Positions 8,144 to 55,556 of a stretch of 64,000 nt of DNA are shown one piece after another; the first letter of the stretch is position 1; each line of letters begins with the position of its first letter. The translations under genes were made by a program, and so were the position numbers. The stretch comes from Pyrinomonadaceae bacterium (GTDB taxonomy: Bacteria > Acidobacteriota > Blastocatellia > Pyrinomonadales > Pyrinomonadaceae). Location: contig DASVXV010000163.1 in the NCBI GenBank assembly GCA_036392495.1, positions 2,951 through 66,950 of the forward strand, written 5' to 3'. The notes under the pieces are model-generated. The model worked only from the letters and a program-made list of their open reading frames with translations. It was not told the DNA's origin and ran no database searches.

Positions 8144-8182
8144 GAGGGCGGGGGCTTTGTGAGCCACCCGCCCTCTTACTTT
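8144..8182 (+). terminator. intrinsic terminator-like hairpin
   Basis: gagggcggg-loop-cccgccctc followed by ttactttc, downstream of the 8112 stop. Confidence 0.5.
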
Positions 8183-8289
8183 CGGCAGCTGCGAGAATAG
8201 GTCGGCCTAAATGAGGCGGAGCCGAATCCAGAAATCGTCCGACTTCTGATTTACGTAGTTACTATAAAAGATGCGATTGCCCTGGTCGC

Positions 8290-10224
8290 TTATGCCTTCT
8301 CCGAAAAACGCCTTGAGGAGACTGGGGCGAATCCGAGGTTACTTTGTTCCACACAACTTTTGACACGCGTATAAATGCCGTCGGCATCGAGGCCGTATTT
8401 GGCGAGCAGGAGCTTCGCGTCCCCATGTGTGACGAGGCGGTCGGGAATACCCATCCGAATGACTCTGACCTGATCGAGCAGGCCGTTCTCTTCCAAAAGC
8501 TCCATCACGGCCGAGCCGAAGCCGCCCGCAAGATAAGCTTCTTCGATTGTGACGATCAGACGCTTCGTGCGCGCCAGCGCCAGCAGCAAGCTGGCATCCA
8601 ACGGTTTGACGAAACGCGCGTTAACGACCGTCGTTTCGATTCCATCTTTTGACAAATTCTCGGCCGCCTGTAGCGACGGATGCACCATCGCCCCGTAGGC
8701 TACAATTGCCACGTCGCCGCCGCTATCGCGCAGGATTTCGCCCTTGCCTATTTCCAGGAGCTGCGGCTCGCGGCTGATGTCCACGCCGATACCATTCCCG
8801 CGCGGATAGCGTAGAGCCGCAGGCCCGTTGTGCTCGATTGCCGTCCACAGCATGTCGCGCAACTCCCCCTCGTCCTTCGGGGCCATCAAGATCATGTTCG
8901 GCATCGGCCTGAGATAAGCTATGTCCAGGAGCCCGTGATGCGTCGGCCCGTCAGGCCCGGCTACGCCCCCGCGGTCCAGAGCGAAGGTGACGTCCAGGTT
9001 CTGGATGCAGATGTCGTGCATCACCTGGTCGAAGCCGCGTTGCAGGAAAGTCGAATAGATCGCCGCGACTGGCTTCAAGCCTTCGCAGGCCATGCCGCCC
9101 GAGAACGTGACGGCGTGCTGCTCCGCTATCCCGACGTCAAACGCCCGCTCCGGAAATTTCTCCAGAACCGTATCCACGCCCGTCCCGTCTGGCATCGCCG
9201 CCGTCAGCGCGACGATACGCTCATCTTTCTCCATCAACTCACACATGGTCCTGCCAAAAACGGCGGTGTAAGTCGGAACTTTCGTGGACGACTTGATGGG
9301 TTTACCGGTTTTAATGTCGAAGGGCCCCGTGGCGTGCCAGGCGTAATAATTTTTTTCTAAGGCCGGATAGCCTTTGCCTTTGGTCGTCAGCGCGTGGACG
9401 ATGACGGGTCCATCCTTGACCTGCTGCGCCTCGCGCAGAGCGGCCACCAGAGCGCGCGGGTTGTGACCGTCAACATAGCCTATGTACTTGAAGCCGAGCT
9501 CGCTGGTCAGCGCGCCCGGCAAGACCGCGGCGGCGAGCGCGTCCTTGACCGTCTTGGCGGCTAGATGAAGGCGTTCGCCTAAGGCCGGAATCGAAAGCAG
9601 TGTTTCCCCCACCTCGTCCTTGAAGCGGTGATAACCTTGTGCCTGCCGCAGGCGGTTGAGATAGCCCGTGAGCGCGCCGACGGCGGGCGCGATAGACATC
9701 TCGTTGTCGTTCAAGAGCACGATCAGGCGCGTCTTCAAGTGCCCGGCCTGATTGATCGCCTCCATTGCCATGCCGCCGGCCAAGCTGGCGTCGCCGATGA
9801 CGGCGCAGACGTGGTGCTTCTCTTTTTTGCGATCACGCGCCACGGCCATCCCCAGCGCAGCAGAAATTGAAGTCGAAGCGTGTCCCGCGCCGAAGGTGTC
9901 GTACTCAGACTCGTCGCGCTTGAGAAATCCGCTGATCCCGCCGTACTGCTTGATTGTCGGCAAAGCGTCGCGCCGCCCCGTCAGGATTTTATGCGTGTAG
10001 GCCTGATGACCCACATCCCAAACAATGCGATCAGTCGGCGTGTCGAAAGCGTAATGCAACGCCACGGCCAATTCGACCGCGCCGAGGCTGGCCCCCGTGT
10101 GACCGCCCACGCGCGACATCGTTTCCAGAATGTACTCGCGAATCTCGTCAGCGACTGTCTGCAACTGTTGCGGCGCAAGGCGGCGCAAATCTGTGGGCGA
10201 GTTAATATCTTGTAGGAGTTTCAT
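8290..10224 (-). CDS. dxs: 1-deoxy-D-xylulose-5-phosphate synthase
   Basis: 644 aa, full-length match to the DXS pattern (GGHTGASLG, HQAYTHKILTGR, GDASLAGGMAMEA). Confidence 0.95.
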   Translation of the reverse strand: MKLLQDINSPTDLRRLAPQQLQTVADEIREYILETMSRVGGHTGASLGAVELAVALHYAFDTPTDRIVWDVGHQAYTHKILTGRRDALPTIKQYGGISGFLKRDESEYDTFGAGHASTSISAALGMAVARDRKKEKHHVCAVIGDASLAGGMAMEAINQAGHLKTRLIVLLNDNEMSIAPAVGALTGYLNRLRQAQGYHRFKDEVGETLLSIPALGERLHLAAKTVKDALAAAVLPGALTSELGFKYIGYVDGHNPRALVAALREAQQVKDGPVIVHALTTKGKGYPALEKNYYAWHATGPFDIKTGKPIKSSTKVPTYTAVFGRTMCELMEKDERIVALTAAMPDGTGVDTVLEKFPERAFDVGIAEQHAVTFSGGMACEGLKPVAAIYSTFLQRGFDQVMHDICIQNLDVTFALDRGGVAGPDGPTHHGLLDIAYLRPMPNMILMAPKDEGELRDMLWTAIEHNGPAALRYPRGNGIGVDISREPQLLEIGKGEILRDSGGDVAIVAYGAMVHPSLQAAENLSKDGIETTVVNARFVKPLDASLLLALARTKRLIVTIEEAYLAGGFGSAVMELLEENGLLDQVRVIRMGIPDRLVTHGDAKLLLAKYGLDADGIYTRVKSCVEQSNLGFAPVSSRRFSEKA

Positions 10225-10314
10225 TTCGGTTTCGTATTGTAGCGCGGGAACAGCGGTTTTGCCATCTCACGAAATATTCACAATTCGAGAGCATTTGCTT
10301 CTCCTTCAGCACAT

Positions 10315-10716
10315 TCAACGGTGTGTGAAATTTTCCAGAATGCCGTAGACAGTGATGGTCGCCAAAAGCAGCGAACTCAACACCACGACAGACACGTTCC
10401 AGCCATGCACCCTTTTATCAGGGCTGCTTAAGGTGACGTCGGCGTCCCCTCTGGCCTTGAGCCTGAAGATGGCGTACAGGTTCAAGGCCAGGGCTGCGAG
10501 CAACCCGCCAAAAAAGAGAAGCGGCGTGATGACCAGGTTGAGTATTCGTAGACGCAGCGGGTCCGCAAAGAAGACCGCGAGCGGATCAAAGAGCAGCCCC
10601 CAGCCGAAACCGTACTTCAAGGCGGCGGCGCTCACGAAGTACAAAGGGGGCAGGCTGAGAATGAGGCCGAGAACCGCCAGCCTTTTCGACGAAGACCGCT
10701 TCACAGATGCCCTCAT
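10315..10716 (-). CDS. hypothetical integral membrane protein
   Basis: 133 aa with 3-4 hydrophobic segments. Confidence 0.55.
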   Translation of the reverse strand: MRASVKRSSSKRLAVLGLILSLPPLYFVSAAALKYGFGWGLLFDPLAVFFADPLRLRILNLVITPLLFFGGLLAALALNLYAIFRLKARGDADVTLSSPDKRVHGWNVSVVVLSSLLLATITVYGILENFTHR

Positions 10717-22066: not shown

Positions 22067-22260
22067 GATGGAGTCCTTTTAGCTGGCAAGCTGGTGTAGA
22101 GCGCGAGGAAGATAAGCTTGTTATCGAATGATTGTCAATTATTGAAGAACGATTTTTAATAACTCTTCAAAAAGCATGCTCCGTTAAAAAATTGAATGGG
22201 CGCGAGCAGCTCATGGCCGCTCAGCGCCTACTCCTAAGAAATTTCCCTTCGGTAAATTTC

Positions 22261-22332
22261 AGGGGTCGGGTGTCAGGGGTTGGGGATCGGTAAAAGCATT
22301 TACTGACCCCCGGCCCCTGACCCCTGACCCCC
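22261..22332. repeat. heptad-stem hairpin, family F (GGGGTCR units), imperfect
   Basis: aggggtcgggtgtcaggggttggggatcgg ... ctgacccccggcccctgacccctgaccccc. Confidence 0.75.
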
Positions 22333-22352
22333 GCTTTTTGCGTGGTCCTTCG

Positions 22353-26325: not shown

Positions 26326-28437
26326 TCAGTTGACGTAGCCGTCGTTACCGTCCTCGCCGTCGCCGCCGCCATCCTCTCCGCCCGCGTCTGTCGTCTCCTC
26401 TGTCAGGACCGCATACGCGGGCGGAGCGCTCTCCTCTTCGAGACTCCAAATCTCGTATAGCTCGGGCGGGACTTCAGTGACAAAGCGCGACGGTTTTTGA
26501 AGGACCGTCTGGCGATTGTAGTCCGTGACCATCAAAGGATAGGTGATGTAAAGCTGCTCTGCGGCGCGCGTCAGTGCGACGTACCAGAGGCGGCGCTCCT
26601 CCTCTTCGCCCTCCGCGTCACGAAGCGAGCGCGGGCTGGGGAATTTGCCGTCGGCCGCCCAGAGGATGAAGACCGCGCGCCACTCCAGGCCCTTCGCCTG
26701 GTGCACGGACGTTAAGGTCAGCATCTCGTCCTCGTCGCTTCCCAGAACGACGTCTTCGCCCGTCAGGGCCTGCGGCGCGCTGTAACGCTCGGTCGAGAGC
26801 AACGCGAGCTCGCCCAGGAACTCTTCCGTAGAGTTGTAGCGCGCGCTGTAGAGCGCCAGCTGCCGCAAATCTTCGAGGCGCGCCTCTGCATTTTCGTAGT
26901 TGCTCGCCAGATACGATTCGTAGCCGCGCGCGAGAATCATCTCGATCTGCCGCGAAGGCGCGTTGCGCGTCTCGTCCCCCACCAGTGCTTCAAGCAGCGC
27001 GAGGAACTCCGTCCACCCGCCCCCGCGTTTCGGAGCGGCCTGGAAATCTGCGCGCCTGACGAGCGCGAGCGGGTCCGGCGCGTAGGCCAATTGCTCCCAG
27101 ATTCTGCCGGCGGTCGCCGGACCGACGTTCGGAATCAGGCGCAGGACGCGCTTCCAGGCCAGCTCGTCGCGTGGGTTTGTGACGAGGCGCAGGTACGAGA
27201 CGACGTCCTTGATGTGCGCCTGCTCGAAGAAACGCACGCCGCTGCGGACGCGATACGGGATACCGCGCCGCGTCAGCTCCAGTTGCAGTTCGAGCGAATG
27301 ATAGTGAGAGCGGTAGAGCACTGCCGTCTCTTCGAGCGGGATGCCTTCGTCCCGTAGCTCAAGAATGCGCGCGGCTGTAAAGGCTGCCTGCTGGTCCGCG
27401 TCGCGGCAAGGGATGAGAGCCGGGGGCTGCCCCTTCGAGTCGCGCGCCGGACGCAGGGTTTTGGGAAACTGTTTGCGGTTCGAACTGATTGAGACGTTGG
27501 CGAGCGCCAGGATTTCGGGCGTGGAGCGATAGTTGGTCTCCAGGCGATAGACGCGCGCCTCCGGGTAGCGCGACGGAAACTCGTAGATGTTCGTAAACTC
27601 CGCGCCGCGCCAGGCGTAAATGCTCTGCGCGTCGTCGCCGACGACCATCACGTTGCGGTGTTTGATGCCCAGCAAATCAACAATCTCCGCCTGGAGCTTG
27701 TTCGTATCCTGGTATTCGTCAACCAGGATGTGCTGGAACTGGTCCGCATAAAGCGCCGCGATGTCCGCCTTCTCCATCAAGAGGCGTTTCCAGTTGAGCA
27801 GCAGGTCGTCATAGTCCATCACGTTGCGCTCACGCTTGCGCGCCATGTAGATCGCGTCAACGCGCTTGATAGCTTGCGTCAGCGGCTCGAAATGCGGGTA
27901 GCGGCGCGCGACCACGTCTTCCAGGGGACGGTCCGTATTGTTGGCGAAGCTGATCAGGTCCTGCAAGATTTCCGCCTTCGGAAAACGGCGCGCCTTTGTG
28001 TCAATGCCCGCTTCGTCCACGCAGGCCGAGAGGAAATCTTTCGAGTCTTCCGAATCGAGAATCGAGTAGTTGGACTCAAAACCGATTGACGCGGCGTGGC
28101 GACGCAGGATGAGATTGGCGATGCGGTGGAACGTCCCGCCCCAGACACGGCGCACGTCGCCGCCGCTCGTCAGAGTTTCGACGCGGCGGAGCATCTCGCG
28201 CGCCGCCCGGTTAGTGAAGGTCGCGAGCATGATGCGCGCGGGAGCGACCCCCTGCTCAATGAGGTAAGCGACGCGGTAGGTGACGGCGCGCGTCTTGCCG
28301 GAGCCAGCGCCCGCGACGACCAGGGCAGCCCCCGGCGACCCCGTGGCGACCGCGAACTGCTCCTCGTTGAGTTCCGCGCGATAGCGGGCCAAACGGTCCG
28401 GCTGCACTGCGCCGCGTTTGATGACGTAGCGTGTCAT
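26326..28437 (-). CDS. UvrD/PcrA/Rep-type SF1 DNA helicase
   Basis: AGAGSGKT Walker A, TFTNRAAREM, VDEYQDTN and VGDDAQSIYAWRGA motifs. Acidic Gly/Asp tail. Confidence 0.9.
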   Translation of the reverse strand: MTRYVIKRGAVQPDRLARYRAELNEEQFAVATGSPGAALVVAGAGSGKTRAVTYRVAYLIEQGVAPARIMLATFTNRAAREMLRRVETLTSGGDVRRVWGGTFHRIANLILRRHAASIGFESNYSILDSEDSKDFLSACVDEAGIDTKARRFPKAEILQDLISFANNTDRPLEDVVARRYPHFEPLTQAIKRVDAIYMARKRERNVMDYDDLLLNWKRLLMEKADIAALYADQFQHILVDEYQDTNKLQAEIVDLLGIKHRNVMVVGDDAQSIYAWRGAEFTNIYEFPSRYPEARVYRLETNYRSTPEILALANVSISSNRKQFPKTLRPARDSKGQPPALIPCRDADQQAAFTAARILELRDEGIPLEETAVLYRSHYHSLELQLELTRRGIPYRVRSGVRFFEQAHIKDVVSYLRLVTNPRDELAWKRVLRLIPNVGPATAGRIWEQLAYAPDPLALVRRADFQAAPKRGGGWTEFLALLEALVGDETRNAPSRQIEMILARGYESYLASNYENAEARLEDLRQLALYSARYNSTEEFLGELALLSTERYSAPQALTGEDVVLGSDEDEMLTLTSVHQAKGLEWRAVFILWAADGKFPSPRSLRDAEGEEEERRLWYVALTRAAEQLYITYPLMVTDYNRQTVLQKPSRFVTEVPPELYEIWSLEEESAPPAYAVLTEETTDAGGEDGGGDGEDGNDGYVN

Positions 28438-28444
28438 GACAACA

Positions 28445-28534
28445 CAGAATTCAGGAGCCAGAATCCAGAATCCAGAATTTTAAAGCGGAAGCCACTTTAG
28501 CAGATTTTCTTTTCTTCTGGCCTCCGGATTCTGA
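28445..28534. repeat. heptad-stem hairpin (CAGAATC units), imperfect
   Basis: cagaattcaggagccagaatccagaatccagaa ... ttctggcctccggattctg. The loop ends in a T-rich tract. Confidence 0.7.
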
Positions 28535-28541
28535 CTTTCAG

Positions 28542-28697
28542 CAGGGTCTATTCATTTTCGGAGATTGAGGAAAGTAGAGCAATAGGACTGTCCACGAAGC
28601 CACACGAAACGACACTAAATTGTCGTGGTTTGTTTCGTGTCGTTTCGTGTGGCGCGCGTGGATTGTTCCTTGTTCCGCCGAGTATGAATAGACCCTG
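28542..28697. repeat. 156-bp nested inverted-repeat element (MITE-like or structured RNA)
   Basis: 14-bp perfect terminal IR cagggtctattcat / atgaatagaccctg. Inner hairpin gccacacgaaacgacac...gtgtcgtttcgtgtggc. CTTTCAG direct repeats at 28535-28541 and 28700-28706 (2-nt offset on the right). Confidence 0.55.
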
Positions 28698-28785
28698 GGC
28701 TTTCAGAATTCCGCCTTTTCTTGTTAGGATGAATGGCGTACCAACTTTCAAACTTTCATCCAATCCGGAAGAGAGGTTAAGCGAG

Positions 28786-29091
28786 ATGAAATTCCCAGGC
28801 GGGCTGAACATTCAGCAGATGATGAAGCAGGCGCAACAGATGCAGGAGAAGATGGCGCGCGAGATGGAGGAGCTGGTCGTCGAGGCTTCCTCGGGCGGAG
28901 GCGTCGTCACGGTCCAGATGAAGGGCACGCACGAGGTCGTGGGACTCAAGATTGACCCGGAGGCCGTCAAGGAAGACGACATCGAGATGCTTCAGGACAT
29001 GATCGTCGCCGCCGTCAACGAAGCGAACCGCAAGATTGATGAAGCCATGAAAGGCAAACTGGGCGGCATGCTCCCGCCAGGACTTCTCTAA
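28786..29091 (+). CDS. ybaB: YbaB/EbfC family nucleoid-associated protein
   Basis: [23 protein letters not shown]..., 101 aa. The track ORF start at 28630 is over-extended. Confidence 0.9.
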
Positions 29092-29575
29092 AAAAGGGGT
29101 CGGGGGCCAGGGGTCGGGGGCCGGAAAGCGTGGAGGCGTGTATGGCTATCAATAGTTTCCGCGATCTCAGGGTCTGGCAGGCAGGGATGGAGTTAGTAGA
29201 ACAGGTATATCTTCTAACGCAGGCATTCCCTAAACAGGAGATTTATGGATTAACCAGTCAGATTCAGCGCGCTGCCGTTTCCGTCCCTTCAAATATTGCT
29301 GAAGGACACACGAGAGAACATAGCAAAGAATTCTTACACCACTTGTCAATGGCTCAAGCGTCCTTGGCTGAGCTAGAAACTCAATTGGAAATAGCGGCGC
29401 GCTTGAAGTATATCTTACCCGATAAGCTTGAGCGGACTCTTCAGCAAGTTGCTTCATTAGGCAAGCAACTTTATGCCCTGCGGAATGCTTTAATGAGAGG
29501 ATACAAAGAATAGTGGTCGGATGTTAATAGAAGCCTTTCACCGGCCCCTGGCCCCTGGCCCCCGACCCCTTTTTA
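29091..29575. repeat. 34-bp heptad inverted repeat (family F) enclosing the four-helix-bundle gene
   Basis: Left arm aaaaaggggtcgggggccaggggtcgggggccgg (29091-29124). Right arm ccggcccctggcccctggcccccgaccccttttt (29541-29574). 31 of 34 positions complementary, 416-nt 'loop'. Confidence 0.9.
29142..29513 (+). CDS. four-helix-bundle protein (23S rRNA intervening-sequence protein family, TIGR02436-like)
   Basis: FRDLRVWQ..., YGLTSQIQRAAVSVPSNIAEG, EFLHHLSMAQASLAELETQL are hallmark motifs. ATG at 29142 after GGAGG. Clearly AT-richer codon usage than the flanking genes. Confidence 0.85.
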   Translation: MAINSFRDLRVWQAGMELVEQVYLLTQAFPKQEIYGLTSQIQRAAVSVPSNIAEGHTREHSKEFLHHLSMAQASLAELETQLEIAARLKYILPDKLERTLQQVASLGKQLYALRNALMRGYKE

Positions 29576-29578
29576 ATC

Positions 29579-30192
<614 letters not shown>

Positions 30193-30193
<1 letters not shown>

Positions 30194-30288
30194 AAGGCAA
30201 AAGGGAAAAGGTAAAAGGCAAAAGGGAAGACCAGAGAGCGCATCTTTCGTCCTCACTTTTGCCTTTTTACTTTTTCCTTTTGCCTTTC
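30193..30288. repeat. heptad-stem hairpin, family C (AAAAGGN units)
   Basis: gaaggcaaaagggaaaaggtaaaaggcaaaaggg / loop / cttttgcctttttactttttccttttgcctttc, between convergent recR and the PRTase gene. Confidence 0.88.
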
Positions 30289-30898
30289 AGAATCTGACGT
30301 GCTCCTCTTTCACGCCCTCTTTGCAGTCCTTGCAATCTTCCGAGGTGTCGTACATGGGCGACTCGAAATCTATCAGCGACTTGATGGGGACGTCGCCGAT
30401 GCGGTCCGGCGCGGAGGTGAAGCGAACGATGGTGCCGCAGCCGATGATCTGCGCGCCGAGTTCCTGAACCAGTCCGACCGTCTCCTCGATCGCGTGGCCG
30501 CTGCGGATGATGTCGTCAACGATGATGCAGGGGTTGACTTCGCCCTGGTTGACGTACTGGCGAAACATGCGCTTGCCGTCCACCTCCCGCTCGGCCCAGT
30601 AAATCTGTTCGGCGTTCAAGGCCTCGCGCACCCCGAAGGCGACGGGGATGCCGCCGGAGCTGGGGGAGATGATGGCGACTTTGGGCAGCTGGCTGGAGAT
30701 GTCTCGGTCCACGCGAAACTTGCGCGAGAGCGCGACGGCCAGCACGCGCGCCGTGTCGTAGTAACGGAAGGCGAGCGGCATCTGAAAGTAGTGCGGCGTG
30801 TGTTTGCCGGACGGATAAACGAAGTGGCCCTCGCGGTAAGCGCCGGTGCGCTTCAGAATCTGCATCACGGCTTCGGGCGTCGGAATCAGGTTTACCAT
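30287..30898 (-). CDS. phosphoribosyltransferase family protein (PyrE-like)
   Basis: PRPP-binding motif CIIVDDIIRSGHA, 203 aa. Confidence 0.75.
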   Translation of the reverse strand: MVNLIPTPEAVMQILKRTGAYREGHFVYPSGKHTPHYFQMPLAFRYYDTARVLAVALSRKFRVDRDISSQLPKVAIISPSSGGIPVAFGVREALNAEQIYWAEREVDGKRMFRQYVNQGEVNPCIIVDDIIRSGHAIEETVGLVQELGAQIIGCGTIVRFTSAPDRIGDVPIKSLIDFESPMYDTSEDCKDCKEGVKEEHVRF

Positions 30899-30913
30899 TG
30901 TCGGTCTCCTGTA

Positions 30914-31007
30914 AGAAAAGTGATGAGTGATGAGTGATGAGTGATGAGTGATGAGTATTTTCGGTCGTCACTCATCACTCATCACTCATTACTCATCACT
31001 TCTTTTC
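30914..31007. repeat. heptad-stem hairpin (GATGAGT units)
   Basis: agaaaagtgatgagtgatgagtgatgagtgatgagtgatgagt / attttcggtcgt / cactcatcactcatcactcattactcatcacttctttt. Confidence 0.92.
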
Positions 31008-31022
31008 GTCCCACAGCATACA

Positions 31023-31496
31023 TCAATCGGCCCGTTTTGCTCCATCTTTGAGAGCGCGTTTGATGAGCTCGCGCTGGTCTTGGCTTAGTCCCTGCGGGAG
31101 GTGGTCGGGCGCAAACCATTCGATGCTTTCGATCTCTGCGTTGGGCCTCCCGGTCGGCCCTCGGGCGCGGCAGCGAAAGATGATCTCTATCTGCGTGGGC
31201 GTCTTCAGCGTCCGCACGAAGGCAATCTCGGCGCGCTCTATTTCCAGCTCAACCTCTTCGCGCAGCTCGCGCCTGAGGGCTTCTTCGGGCTGCTCGCCCT
31301 TTTCGATGAAGCCGCCGGGGATGCCCCAGCCCGAGCCCACGCGAAAACGATGTTCGAGCAGGAGCACGCGCCCCTCCTCGTCCGTGACGACCGCGCCCGC
31401 CGTCACAGTAAATCGCGGCTCGACCAGGCGCACGCTCCACCGCCGCAAACTCCTCGGCGCGCGACGCCACAGAGCACCGAGCATCTTCTTAAACAT
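31023..31496 (-). CDS. NUDIX hydrolase
   Basis: Nudix box GGFIEKGEQPEEALRRELREEVEL. Confidence 0.88.
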   Translation of the reverse strand: MFKKMLGALWRRAPRSLRRWSVRLVEPRFTVTAGAVVTDEEGRVLLLEHRFRVGSGWGIPGGFIEKGEQPEEALRRELREEVELEIERAEIAFVRTLKTPTQIEIIFRCRARGPTGRPNAEIESIEWFAPDHLPQGLSQDQRELIKRALKDGAKRAD

Positions 31497-31508
31497 GCGC
31501 CAGTCAAT

Positions 31509-31597: not shown

Positions 31598-31840
31598 TTG
31601 AGCACCATGAAAGCCTATGAAGAGATTGTAGAGTTTATCGCACGTGGCACTACTCCTAACAACGTCGCTGCGTTCCGTCCTTCTGAGAGCGCCAAAGAGC
31701 GCGTGGCCGACTTGATACAGCGGGAGAAGAGCTCCAGCATTTCGCCCGAAGAAGAATCAGAGTTGAATCATTATCTTCAGCTAGAACATCTCATGAGATT
31801 GGCGAAAGCCCGCGCTCGTCAACATATCGCTAATGGCTGA
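31598..31840 (+). CDS. small hypothetical protein (antitoxin-like architecture)
   Basis: 80 aa, AT-rich. C-terminal LQLEHLMRLAKARARQ helix. TTG start 7 nt after GAGGA (alternative ATG at 31607). Confidence 0.5.
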   Translation: MSTMKAYEEIVEFIARGTTPNNVAAFRPSESAKERVADLIQREKSSSISPEEESELNHYLQLEHLMRLAKARARQHIANG

Positions 31841-35473: not shown

Positions 35474-36535
35474 ATGTCAGCCAACACCACAGATACAGTC
35501 ACAGAGAACGCCCAGGCGCCGGCGGCCGAACAACCCGGCGTGCCGAAGAAGATCACGAACGCGCAGACGGTCTGCAACGTGAAGAACGAGAAGGGCAAGC
35601 TCTGCAACGGTCACCTGAAGCAGTTGGGGACCGGAGGCGAGCCCGCGGAGATTCACCTGCGCGGCGACGACGTGCTCTTCAAGTGCCAGTCGTGCGGCAC
35701 GCTCTACATGGGGCCGCCCCTGGGGCACGTGCGCGATCCCTACAAGCAGCAACGATTCGTCGAGAACGAACTCGCGGCGCTTCTACAGGCCGCGGGCGGG
35801 ACGCTTCCGGCGATTGTGAAGAACGAGCGCGGCGTCTTCGTGCTGGCCGAAGAGACGGCGCACCACGCGCCCGCCCCGAAGTCCGCGGCGGCGAAACCGG
35901 CAGCGGCTCCAGCAGCCGAGAAGAAAGAGGAAAGTACTGCTGCGGCCAAGCCCGCACCCGCAGAGGCGAAGCCCGCCGCAGCGCCCGCCGCACAGCTGGC
36001 TCCGTCGCAGACTTCGCTCGGACCGATTCCGGGGGCGGATGGTCCTGTGCCCGGTGAGACCTTCGAGCAGAAGCTCGTGCGTTTGAGGGCAGTCGTCGCT
36101 GAGGCCAAGCGGCGTAAAGAACTGTTCGGCGGAGGCGAAGCTGCGGCGGGCGCGGAGGCGAAGCCCGCTGGGCAAACACGCCCGACGGCCGCCTCAACTT
36201 CGGGCACGGATTCATCCGCGCAGGCGGACGCGCATCGTCCGGCGGCGGAAGCGCAGGCCGCTACGGGCCAGGCTTCGGCAGCGCCTTTGAGCCCCGCTGC
36301 GGCGACAGCCTCGCCCGCTGCCGGAGCGGAGACGCCCGCAGATTTAGCGCCCGATGCCGCCCCTGCCGCGAAGCAACCAGCGCGCAAGGCAACGCCCGGC
36401 GGTACACTCTACCGCGCCCCCTTCGACACGGGCCCAGTGCCTGGCGAGACTCACGAGCAGAAGATCGAAAGGCTGCGTGGCGTCGTCGCCGCCGCCAAAG
36501 AGCGCGCGGAAAGAGAAGGAAGATCGAAGGAATAG
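35474..36535 (+). CDS. hypothetical protein: N-terminal zinc-ribbon-like Cys pairs, Ala/Pro-rich low-complexity region, duplicated C-terminal helix motif
   Basis: CNVKNEKGKLCNGH...CQSCG. Internal repeat GPVPGETFEQKLVRLRAVVAEAKRR / GPVPGETHEQKIERLRGVVAAAKER. Confidence 0.6.
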   Translation: MSANTTDTVTENAQAPAAEQPGVPKKITNAQTVCNVKNEKGKLCNGHLKQLGTGGEPAEIHLRGDDVLFKCQSCGTLYMGPPLGHVRDPYKQQRFVENELAALLQAAGGTLPAIVKNERGVFVLAEETAHHAPAPKSAAAKPAAAPAAEKKEESTAAAKPAPAEAKPAAAPAAQLAPSQTSLGPIPGADGPVPGETFEQKLVRLRAVVAEAKRRKELFGGGEAAAGAEAKPAGQTRPTAASTSGTDSSAQADAHRPAAEAQAATGQASAAPLSPAAATASPAAGAETPADLAPDAAPAAKQPARKATPGGTLYRAPFDTGPVPGETHEQKIERLRGVVAAAKERAEREGRSKE

Positions 36536-36572
36536 TTCGATTGCGGAATGCGGATTTCGGATTGCGGATTTA
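36534..36572. repeat. solo heptad arm (GCGGATT/TCGGATT units); 23-bp perfect inverted partner at 38785-38807
   Basis: agttcgattgcggaatgcggatt (36534-36556) is the exact reverse complement of 38785-38807. Confidence 0.9.
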
Positions 36573-36584
36573 AGAAAGCGGGAG

Positions 36585-36886
36585 CATAAGGTTTCAGCCG
36601 TCGAAGACGGCGGCGGCATAAAGCCCCGTGCGCGAGCACGGGGGTTGAGCACCCCAACAAAAAGAGAAAGCCCGCGCCAGCGGGCGGCAGCATAAAGCCC
36701 AGGGCGTCAGCCCTGGGTAACAAGTCCCGGTTTGAGACGCCAGCCCGCGTGAGCGGGCGACGGCCCTTGAAACGCGAGCGGGTGTGCGCGGGCTGCCGCC
36801 CATTTCATGGGCTGAATATTCCTCACTGCCTGTAACCCAGGGCTGACGCCCTGGGCTTTATGCCGTCGCCCGCTGGCGCGGGCTGG
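36585..36886. repeat. cluster of REP-like two-hairpin units
   Basis: Units of the form GCCCGC-N4-GCGGGC ... ATAAAGCC ... CCCAGGG-N5-CCCTGGG (or CCCCGTGC..GCACGGGG). 36669-36722 and 36831-36884 are inverted copies (about 50 of 54 positions). Confidence 0.85.
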
Positions 36887-38657: not shown

Positions 38658-38807
38658 ATTTCGGATTTCGGATTTCGGAATGAAAGAACAGAAGGCAGAA
38701 GGCACAAGGCAGAAGGCAGTCAAGGCAAAACGCTCCTGGTTTTTACTGCCTACTGCTTTCTGCCTTCTGCCTTCTGCTTTTCTCAATCCGCATTCCGCAA
38801 TCGAACT
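38658..38807. repeat. nested hairpins: CAGAAGG-unit hairpin inside the loop of a GGATTTC/GCGGAAT-unit hairpin
   Basis: Outer arms 38658-38682 / 38785-38807 (imperfect). Inner arms 38683-38720 / 38745-38782 (about 31 of 37), with loop ...ctcctggttttt. Confidence 0.8.
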
Positions 38808-52842: not shown

Positions 52843-52912
52843 GTCAGTACCGCCTGCGGTAGCGGGCGGGTATTGCGCACCGGACCCGCCCGCTACCGCA
52901 GGCGGTACTGAC
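52843..52912. repeat. 29-bp perfect GC-rich palindrome
   Basis: gtcagtaccgcctgcggtagcgggcgggt / attgcgcaccgg / exact reverse complement. Each arm also contains an internal mini-palindrome (taccgc-ct-gcggta). Confidence 0.92.
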
Positions 52913-55484: not shown

Positions 55485-55556
55485 AGCCCGCGTGAGCGGG
55501 CGACAGACGATCATTTGTCAGCATCTGTCGCCCGCTCACGCGGGCTTTATTGTTTT
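55485..55556 (+). terminator. REP-like 23-bp perfect hairpin plus T-tract
   Basis: agcccgcgtgagcgggcgacaga / 16-nt loop / tctgtcgcccgctcacgcgggct followed by ttattgttttt. Confidence 0.65.

Follow-up and report, generated by a model that had tools for sequence, protein, structure and literature searches.

In a Pyrinomonadaceae bacterium (assembly GCA_036392495.1, contig DASVXV010000163.1, positions 2,951 to 66,950 of the forward strand; the whole stretch of 64,000 nucleotides is called the window in the following), the genes ybaB and recR are separated by a 484-bp unit, positions 29091-29574 of the window. In this unit a gene for a four-helix-bundle (4HB) protein lies between two long complementary arms that are built from heptamers. 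The 4HB protein belongs to the family named after the intervening sequences (IVSs) of 23S rRNA and, on balance, we favour the view that the unit is an IVS-like and probably mobile cassette, situated in a hairpin slot between two cistrons. Arms and 4HB gene are co-inherited as one unit, and this association is specific to the PF05635/TIGR02436 family. The unit and its two neighbours are composed as follows.

28786-29091, + strand: ybaB, YbaB/EbfC nucleoid-associated protein (PF02575, E = 1e-28; TIGR00103, E = 1e-26).
29091-29124, + strand: left arm of the inverted repeat, A5 followed by the heptads GGGGTCG GGGGCCA GGGGTCG GGGGCCGG (Tandem Repeats Finder period 7/14).
29125-29141, + strand: 17-nt leader of the 4HB gene, with the Shine-Dalgarno (SD) sequence GGAGG at 29132-29136, 5 nt ahead of the ATG.
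29142-29513, + strand: 4HB gene, 123 amino acids, 23S-rRNA-IVS-protein/S23p/Avd-like (PF05635, TIGR02436).
29514-29540, + strand: 27-nt trailer, from the 4HB stop codon up to the right arm; the final bases of the trailer, GCCTTTCA, are paired with the leader.
29541-29574, + strand: right arm, CCGGCCCC TGGCCCC TGGCCCC CGACCCC followed by T5 (Tandem Repeats Finder period 7).
29579-30193, + strand: recR (TIGR00615, E = 9e-76).

The three genes are collinear, and the 4HB gene with its arms lies exactly between the ybaB stop codon (TAA, 29089-29091, overlapping the left arm by one base) and the recR start. Much of this layout had been described in a first-pass annotation made from the sequence alone, and most of that description holds: the A5/T5 flanks and the heptad type of the arms are present, the 4HB gene has an SD of its own, and both the coordinates and the profile matches agree with a 416-nt loop that holds a single 4HB gene. 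The arm complementarity given there, 31/34, has to be corrected. Each arm is 34 nt long, and 32 of the 34 positions (94%) are complementary, or all 34 when G·U pairs are counted; by direct reading, the two remaining positions form a U·G and a G·U pair in the sense RNA. The four G-runs of the left arm are also a potential G-quadruplex motif. The 4HB protein matches PF05635 over residues 7-111 with 129.7 bits (E = 6e-38, cut-off 33.8) and TIGR02436 with 125.2 bits (E = 1e-36, cut-off 24), and the closest structure by sequence similarity is the pentameric four-helix bundle XCC0516 (PDB 2GSC, E = 3.6e-28, residues 8-119). An identical protein (100%) is encoded in a Pyrinomonadaceae metagenome-assembled genome (P0001).

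RecR of the window is 83-95% identical (best tblastn segment) to that of 80 Pyrinomonadaceae genomes, and the specificity of the arms was evaluated in 1.33 Mb comprising the window and 80 relatives (L001-L080). An iterated hidden Markov model search of all open reading frames (ORFs), complemented by a fragment in L055, detected seven 4HB genes or pseudogenes, all of which lie between complementary heptad arms. Among them are a copy at an unrelated locus in L036 (GATTTTC/GATTTGC arms), a decayed copy downstream of recR in L055 (GGGGCAG arms) and a frameshifted one in L037. As a control, complementarity was scored between the 200-nt flanks of the 1,170 called genes of the same sequences. Arms that pair solely across the gene with a score of at least 16 were confined to the six intact 4HB genes, and split hairpins were observed for 7/7 4HB copies and 0/~1,164 other genes. 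The high scores at non-4HB genes were all caused by two complete hairpins of the same heptad flanking the gene, e.g. recR in L058, L047, L012 and L054. Since the control gives cross-gene arms at 4HB genes alone, chance is excluded as the source of the 4HB arms, and the topology of a long stem with this ORF, initially noticed at a single locus, is recurrent and family-specific. The same control effectively refutes the explanation that an ordinary intergenic terminator hairpin was split by an unrelated foreign gene. Heptad hairpins fill most intergenic spaces in Pyrinomonadaceae, so that an insertion may well land in one, and the 4HB gene is compositionally foreign; nevertheless, such a coincidence is highly improbable, as the arm type follows the 4HB subfamily across loci and the same pattern recurs with different repeat units in other phyla, on plasmids and in the rRNA IVS of Coxiella.

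Paralogs at other loci, a survey of which had been proposed in the first-pass annotation, are flanked by repeats as well; this applies to L036, L055, L175, L176, many of the loci L081-L160 and plasmid copies. In a metagenomic set, 80 loci code for 66-89% identical relatives of the window 4HB protein, 74 of them with enough flanking sequence. At a threshold of at least 12, complementary flanks occur in 72% of these 74 (control genes 8%), and at a threshold of at least 16 in 58% (control genes 3.6%). The metagenomic loci represent at least 25 genomic contexts. In most of them the neighbours are genes of the same orientation that belong to a recognisable operon; the operon labels were read from the neighbour proteins and are not Pfam results. 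Most frequent are ybaB/recR (~25), ATP-binding cassette (ABC) permease/ABC ATPase (~16), glycosyltransferase/SelB-like GTPase (8) and MoxR ATPase/DUF58 (5-6), and the pair encoding pyruvate dehydrogenase E1alpha/E1beta was also found. In at least 22 of 26 distinct contexts, the gene upstream has the same orientation as the 4HB gene.

Two subfamilies of the 4HB protein were distinguished, and each has its own kind of arm. Subfamily A is enclosed by G-rich heptads, GGGGTCN at ybaB-recR and GGGTGTC, GGGTATC or AGGTGTC elsewhere. The arms of subfamily B are GATTGCG/GAATGCG at every locus, and further modules of this subfamily, five at ybaB/recR, one at hypC/SIS-hypD and one between genes for a thiamine pyrophosphate enzyme and a CBS protein, all have GATTGCG-type arms. 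As the same arms are found across different loci within a subfamily, arm type is tied to the protein subfamily and not to the locus.

The pattern extends to plasmids. With tblastn, 4HB copies were found on plasmids of Nostoc, Anabaena, Calothrix, Picosynechococcus, Leptolyngbya, Geminocystis, Pseudanabaena, Gemmatirosa and Riemerella, and 10 of the 13 inspected copies have inverted tandem-repeat arms (all of these genera except Pseudanabaena). The repeats include TAGGGAG (seven units in tandem), ACAGGTG, GGGTGTA, TCAGGAG, GGGAAAA and GGTTCAA, and the repeat in Gemmatirosa is an 8-mer. Some plasmid copies also split conserved operons: the 4HB gene lies between cas6 and cas4 in Anabaena sp. 90 and Pseudanabaena galeata, between cas10/cmr2 and cmr3 in Picosynechococcus PCC 7003 and, in antisense orientation, between the ribonucleotide reductase beta and alpha genes in Nostoc edaphicum.

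At the ybaB-recR junction itself, all 78 relatives with an ybaB ortholog and recR were compared. Approximately 62 of them have an empty heptad hairpin of 64-153 nt that spans the distance from the stop codon to the ATG, with heptads that differ widely between genomes, while in 9 there is no hairpin and the recR start follows 0-9 nt after the ybaB stop. In L013 an orthologous 4HB gene (87% amino acid identity) is located within GGGGNCN arms, and in L037, L056 and L064 a subfamily-B gene (MNxxEMKxRTRxFALR...) within GATTGCG/GAATGCG arms, so that two different 4HB subfamilies occupy the slot; the subfamily-B proteins from L056 and L036 match PF05635 with E ~1e-16. The comparison of relatives, in which a gene without repeats would have spoken against a common unit, gave the opposite result: L013, ~25 metagenomic loci and L174-L180 all keep the flanking repeats. 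Two further inserts were seen at this junction, one of 534 nt in L045 (9467-10000) with an ORF inside and no hairpin arms, and one of 2.5 kb in L061 (7499-10000) that starts with a heptad hairpin. The recR ATG of the window follows 4 nt after the right arm and lacks a purine-rich SD, as had been pointed out earlier. This start is conserved in all relatives, and in the hairpin-bearing ones the right arm stops 0-9 nt short of it; the arrangement is equally found with empty hairpins and is not special to the filled state.

On a recR tree (neighbour-joining, DNA, single gene, no support values) genomes with a filled, an empty or no hairpin are intermingled. The filled L081 has as its sister L001, whose hairpin is empty (TTCAAGG), and the filled L013 likewise L012 (empty, GGTGATA). 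L064 (filled, subfamily B) is placed among genomes with TTTCAAG and AGTGACA hairpins, and all members of one deep clade are filled. When sister pairs are aligned, they differ by replacement of the entire stretch that begins immediately behind the ybaB stop codon and ends immediately ahead of the recR ATG. The slot undergoes rapid turnover among no hairpin, empty hairpins of many heptads and filled hairpins. Because the same unit is found in many loci and phyla and its presence at ybaB-recR is patchy, this distribution suggests that the cassette is mobile. The earlier proposal of a mobile cassette that targets hairpin loops is supported only in part: the unit is recurrent and looks portable, but its arms travel with the subfamily, and sister genomes differ by replacement of the whole segment and not by a gene inserted into a hairpin of matching heptad that was already there. 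We favour an exchange of the whole cassette between hairpin slots that share a heptad, by recombination or gene conversion through the arms or the flanking genes; alternatively, a factor acting in trans could spread it. The conserved 4HB protein probably serves the maintenance or spread of the cassette.

Folding of the 511-nt region 29080-29590 gave a minimum free energy (MFE) of -200.5 kcal/mol (z = -7.1 against shuffles), and in both the MFE and the centroid structures a ~41-bp long-range stem closes the whole 4HB gene. The stem extends beyond the left arm in both structures, with the first bases of the leader, AAAGC, pairing with 29534-29540. Neither a sense-strand sigma-70-like promoter nor a simple terminator was called inside the unit in a promoter/terminator scan. 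As no promoter is predicted in the unit, the 4HB gene would depend on transcription that continues from ybaB. In this RNA the arms would close into a ~34-41 bp stem with the 4HB cargo looped out, which would bring the ybaB stop and the recR start together and make the insertion tolerable. Since a stem from stop to start keeps both codons adjacent, empty as well as filled hairpins could be tolerated at this exact site. Translation of recR may be coupled to that of ybaB, with the terminating ribosome melting the base of the stem and exposing the recR start. A stem of this length is an expected substrate of RNase III, cleavage by which has been demonstrated for the IVSs of Coxiella and Leptospira, and by this analogy processing of the unit is likely. 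An Rfam search of 28000-31500 returned nothing above the gathering score, no rRNA and nothing on 29091-29574; sub-threshold matches to miRNA precursors were obtained on the neighbouring empty hairpins at ~30190-30290 and 30915-31005.

Several observations weigh against an IVS-like mobile cassette. Approximately 20-25% of the relatives have no detectable arms (e.g. L090, L093, L099 and L123), hence the arms are not obligatory. Among the plasmid copies, L173 (Pseudanabaena) has direct instead of inverted AAAAGCT/AAAAGCC arrays on either side, and L165 and L166 have an array on one side only. The subfamily-B proteins at different loci are just ~81% identical, and no recent identical copy was found. 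Homologous exchange of ybaB-recR alleles between strains explains the pattern at the junction as well as repeated insertion does, and both the uniformly filled deep clade and the GC content at third codon positions (GC3) of the 4HB gene, which stays low across lineages, would agree with a cassette that has long been inherited vertically and has perhaps been domesticated. At the RNA level, arm mismatches that are tolerated in sense RNA (G·U) were counted against A·C mismatches. Over 63 non-identical modules the ratio is 137 vs 110 (p = 0.10), and 51 empty ybaB-recR hairpins go in the opposite direction (52 vs 80, p = 0.018). The mismatch spectrum thus gives no evidence of selection on the sense RNA, which is not claimed here, and it is equally possible that a DNA-level process (homogenisation of the arms) or selection on both strands accounts for the complementarity. 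The G-rich upstream arm was considered as a sign of fixed gene polarity and likewise discarded, as an inverted repeat reads alike on both strands. Lastly, neither a mobility enzyme nor a target-site duplication was found.

This last point also bears on the question whether the unit is a non-autonomous DNA transposon, i.e. a miniature inverted-repeat transposable element (MITE) with a passenger gene, whose arms would be the terminal inverted repeats for a transposase encoded elsewhere and whose miniature derivatives would be the empty hairpins. Hairpins are indeed abundant: the 1.33 Mb contain 379 with arms of at least 18 nt, ~1 per 3.5 kb, of which 253 are heptad-periodic. The median arm is 28 nt long and the median loop 20 nt, the latter in agreement with the ~20-nt loops that had been reported for hairpins elsewhere in the window. 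Usually they span the distance from directly after a stop codon up to the next start or stop codon. In favour of a MITE are the terminal inverted repeats, the occurrence of nested hairpins, and the difference between sister genomes in the presence or absence of the whole cassette. On the other hand, no consistent target-site duplication was seen in the window and in the modules at four loci, by inspection only and not by a statistical scan, and no transposase was found in or beside ~100 modules among the called genes and Pfam labels, except an ISL3 by one Nostoc plasmid copy (whole genomes were not searched). Furthermore, dozens of unrelated heptads would each require a cognate transposase, and the arm length varies by whole heptads, which is expected of slippage and not of fixed ends. 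We therefore consider a MITE unlikely.

Within the window ~20 intergenic hairpins were found, mostly built from heptads that vary by site (TCGTAAA, AGTCTGG, AAGGCAA, AGTGATG, CAGAAGG, CAGTGGT, AGTGACA and others). Two of them deserve separate listing.

22259-22335, no strand assigned: empty hairpin with GGGGTCN/GGGTGTC heptads, the ORF-less counterpart of the filled unit, with a loop of 12-25 nt (sequence and hairpin scan).
30194-30286, no strand assigned: empty AAGGCAA heptad hairpin that spans the distance from the recR stop to the stop of a convergent gene.

The slot equivalent to the second hairpin holds, in L055, the decayed 4HB gene between GGGGCAG arms. A solitary left-type AAAGGCA arm at 31511-31541 matches the same hairpin and is followed by a 77-amino-acid ORF (31607-31840) with a GC3 of 0.51 (z = -2.9), without a Pfam or PADLOC match and without a homolog in any fetched locus. 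It was examined as a second gene in a hairpin and rejected, the best right-arm score being just 8. Hairpins on either side of recR share their heptad in L058, L047, L012, L054 and others (recR at 10001-10615, in L054 at 8172-8786), and a shared type in neighbouring slots suggests local copying or conversion. At 38658-38807 a CAGAAGG hairpin (38684-38781) is nested in the loop of an ATTTCGG/AATCCGC hairpin, of whose outer arm a third copy lies 2.2 kb away (36534-36579); nested hairpins are also present at the ybaB-recR junction of L026, L068 and L031. These cases suggest that hairpin loops can receive new hairpins, so that loops may be targeted after all. No loop-apex motif was shared across the hairpins, merely a loose A-rich...T-rich tendency (AAAAG...CTTTT), which cannot tell insertion from deletion and was dropped as a marker for either. 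Two other types of repeat were seen. At 28535-28706, upstream of ybaB, a 20-nt inverted repeat (28542-28561/28678-28697, CAGGGTCTATTCATTTTCGG...) surrounds an inner hairpin (28599-28653) and has CTTTCAG on both outer sides, as in a MITE with a target duplication. A second palindrome family, which is GC-rich (GCCCGCG..CGCGGGC), non-heptad and similar to repetitive extragenic palindromes (REPs), occurs at 36669-36884, 36609-36643, 52843-52912 and 55485-55546; one copy has 54-nt arms that are 94% complementary and 108 nt apart.

The composition of the 4HB gene differs from that of its surroundings. With 0.46 its GC3 is the lowest of all window genes (0.72 +/- 0.07 for 59 genes, z = -3.6), and the same applies to its synonymous-codon fit score (z = -3.85), which substantiates the non-native codon usage suspected in the first-pass annotation. 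The neighbours ybaB (GC3 0.80) and recR (0.81) are among the best codon-adapted genes of the window. In 23/23 ybaB-4HB-recR loci the GC3 of the 4HB gene is 0.40-0.57, ~0.2 under that of its neighbours; hence the atypical composition is not simply due to recent acquisition. The median ratio of nonsynonymous to synonymous substitution rates (dN/dS) among orthologs is 0.11 for the 4HB gene, compared to 0.02 for ybaB and 0.04 for recR, which indicates that the 4HB protein is under purifying selection, as judged from the sequences. For the same genome pairs (window, L013, L081, L088 ... L157) the median dS is 0.30 for the 4HB gene, 0.48 for ybaB and 0.63 for recR; a cassette that was exchanged more recently, or constrained synonymous sites, could account for the lower value, on which no conclusion is based here. 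Scans of IMG/VR with both 4HB subfamilies gave zero viral relatives, and a viral origin of the genes was rejected; membership in a defence system was dismissed as well, as PADLOC gave no match for either subfamily.

Purifying selection would also be expected if the cassette were no longer selfish and had become a domesticated host module, in which 4HB gene and stem form a regulated third cistron of ybaB-recR, e.g. a nucleoid or repair accessory, with the stem setting translation or mRNA stability. In agreement with this, the entire deep clade retains the gene at ybaB-recR, two 4HB subfamilies both occupy the site, and the exact stop-to-start placement preserves the operon layout. The same subfamilies and arms are, however, found in unrelated operons (ABC transporter, MoxR-DUF58, hyp, pyruvate dehydrogenase, CRISPR-cas), most close relatives have no 4HB gene at the junction, the copies in L037 and L055 are pseudogenes, and the codon usage of the 4HB gene is still foreign. 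Domestication thus appears improbable to us.

The closest resemblance is to ORF-bearing 23S IVSs. The IVS of Coxiella burnetii (Warrier et al. 2016, PMC4990558) is 428-444 nt long and has a 28-bp terminal inverted-repeat stem, in which RNase III cuts; the loop contains an S23p ORF. Directly ahead of the start codon of this ORF there are GACAGAT heptamers in tandem, in a copy number that varies between strains (PMC4990558), and the IVS was regarded as a mobile element with the ORF as a mobility component (Ralph and McClelland 1993, cited in PMC4990558). The link to 23S IVSs is stronger than initially claimed, as the GACAGAT repeats of Coxiella are part of the IVS stem. The unit in the window is similar in size (484 nt), has an enclosing stem in the same range (~28-34 bp), an S23p ORF in the loop and heptamers in the start-side arm. 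It differs by its location between protein genes of an mRNA operon, whereas IVSs reside in helix 25 or 45 of 23S rRNA and are excised by RNase III. In contrast to the Coxiella ORF, which is decaying and apparently untranslated, the 4HB gene is preceded by a good SD and shows purifying selection. Apart from the location, 29091-29574 shares every IVS feature that was tested.

Correia/NEMIS elements in Neisseria and ERIC elements in enterobacteria are inverted-repeat elements in transcribed intergenic regions. Their transcripts fold into long hairpins, which RNase III or RNase E processes, and the elements influence how stable the flanking mRNA is. They have no ORF, a single conserved sequence per genus and target duplications (TA for Correia); we know of neither a heptamer periodicity nor an association with a protein family for them. 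REPs and REPINs with their RAYT transposases (PMC3116915) resemble the hairpins described here in being abundant intergenic repeats that form hairpins and evolve as mobile units within genomes. REPINs have one conserved sequence family for each RAYT, whereas periodicity and architecture are all that the dozens of unrelated heptads have in common here, and there is a 4HB cargo; the window alone has at least 10 unrelated heptads, and no RAYT was noticed, though none was specifically searched for.

Heptamer arrays have been described as ~70 convergent pairs of GGGAATC arrays in Xanthomonas and as GGGGA(C/T)T arrays in Nostoc (Rehm et al. 2015, PMC4692102), and as TAACTGA arrays in Beggiatoaceae (MacGregor 2015, PMC4679880). 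Like these and the short tandemly repeated repetitive (STRR) sequences of heterocystous cyanobacteria, the hairpins have a 7-nt unit, are intergenic and near the upstream ORF, and vary in length and sequence among close relatives at a conserved position (PMC4692102, PMC4679880). Unlike our analysis, both studies cover the repeats alone; a text search of the two papers gave no mention of S23p genes. Full-text literature searches, with subscription-only literature outside their scope, gave nothing that links the S23p family to heptamer or tandem repeats beyond Coxiella, and the general 4HB-heptamer association appears unreported.

The Avd proteins of diversity-generating retroelements are homologous in fold and family, and the 4HB protein shows weaker matches to bAvd (PF22296, E = 3e-10) and to NF033474 (E = 3e-10). 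The latter score, 40.5, is below the Avd cut-off of 80; there is no reverse transcriptase and no template or variable repeat nearby, and the neighbours are ybaB and recR. Integron cassettes have a single attC 3' of a promoterless ORF and form arrays next to intI/attI, whereas here repeats on both sides pair with each other and a lone cassette sits in a housekeeping operon; intI was not searched for.

The S23p/4HB family is very large, with ~8,000 homologs in each of two database searches, and the origin and function of 23S IVSs and of this family have been open since the early 1990s, as have those of the heptamer repeats that are over-represented in cyanobacteria, Xanthomonas and other bacteria. 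The locus and its relatives tie all three together. It is a tentative extension, which we put forward as a possibility, that heptamer-armed PF05635/TIGR02436 genes are pan-bacterial portable inter-cistronic cassettes. The 23S IVSs might then be their rRNA-resident case, ORF-less heptamer hairpins (in Pyrinomonadaceae, the cyanobacterial STRR sequences and the GGGAATC pairs of Xanthomonas) derivatives or landing pads, and the pentameric 4HB protein an Avd-like copying or maintenance factor. What the present data establish for the family is that the architecture of an ORF in a stem occurs outside rRNA, between co-transcribed genes, with an arm sequence that co-varies with the protein subfamily. 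In annotation, 4HB genes should be expected to split conserved operons, including those for CRISPR-cas and ribonucleotide reductase. With its hundreds of filled, empty and hairpin-less alleles, the ybaB-recR junction is a tractable comparative system for the movement of the cassette, the insulation of operons by RNase III and the role of the 4HB protein.

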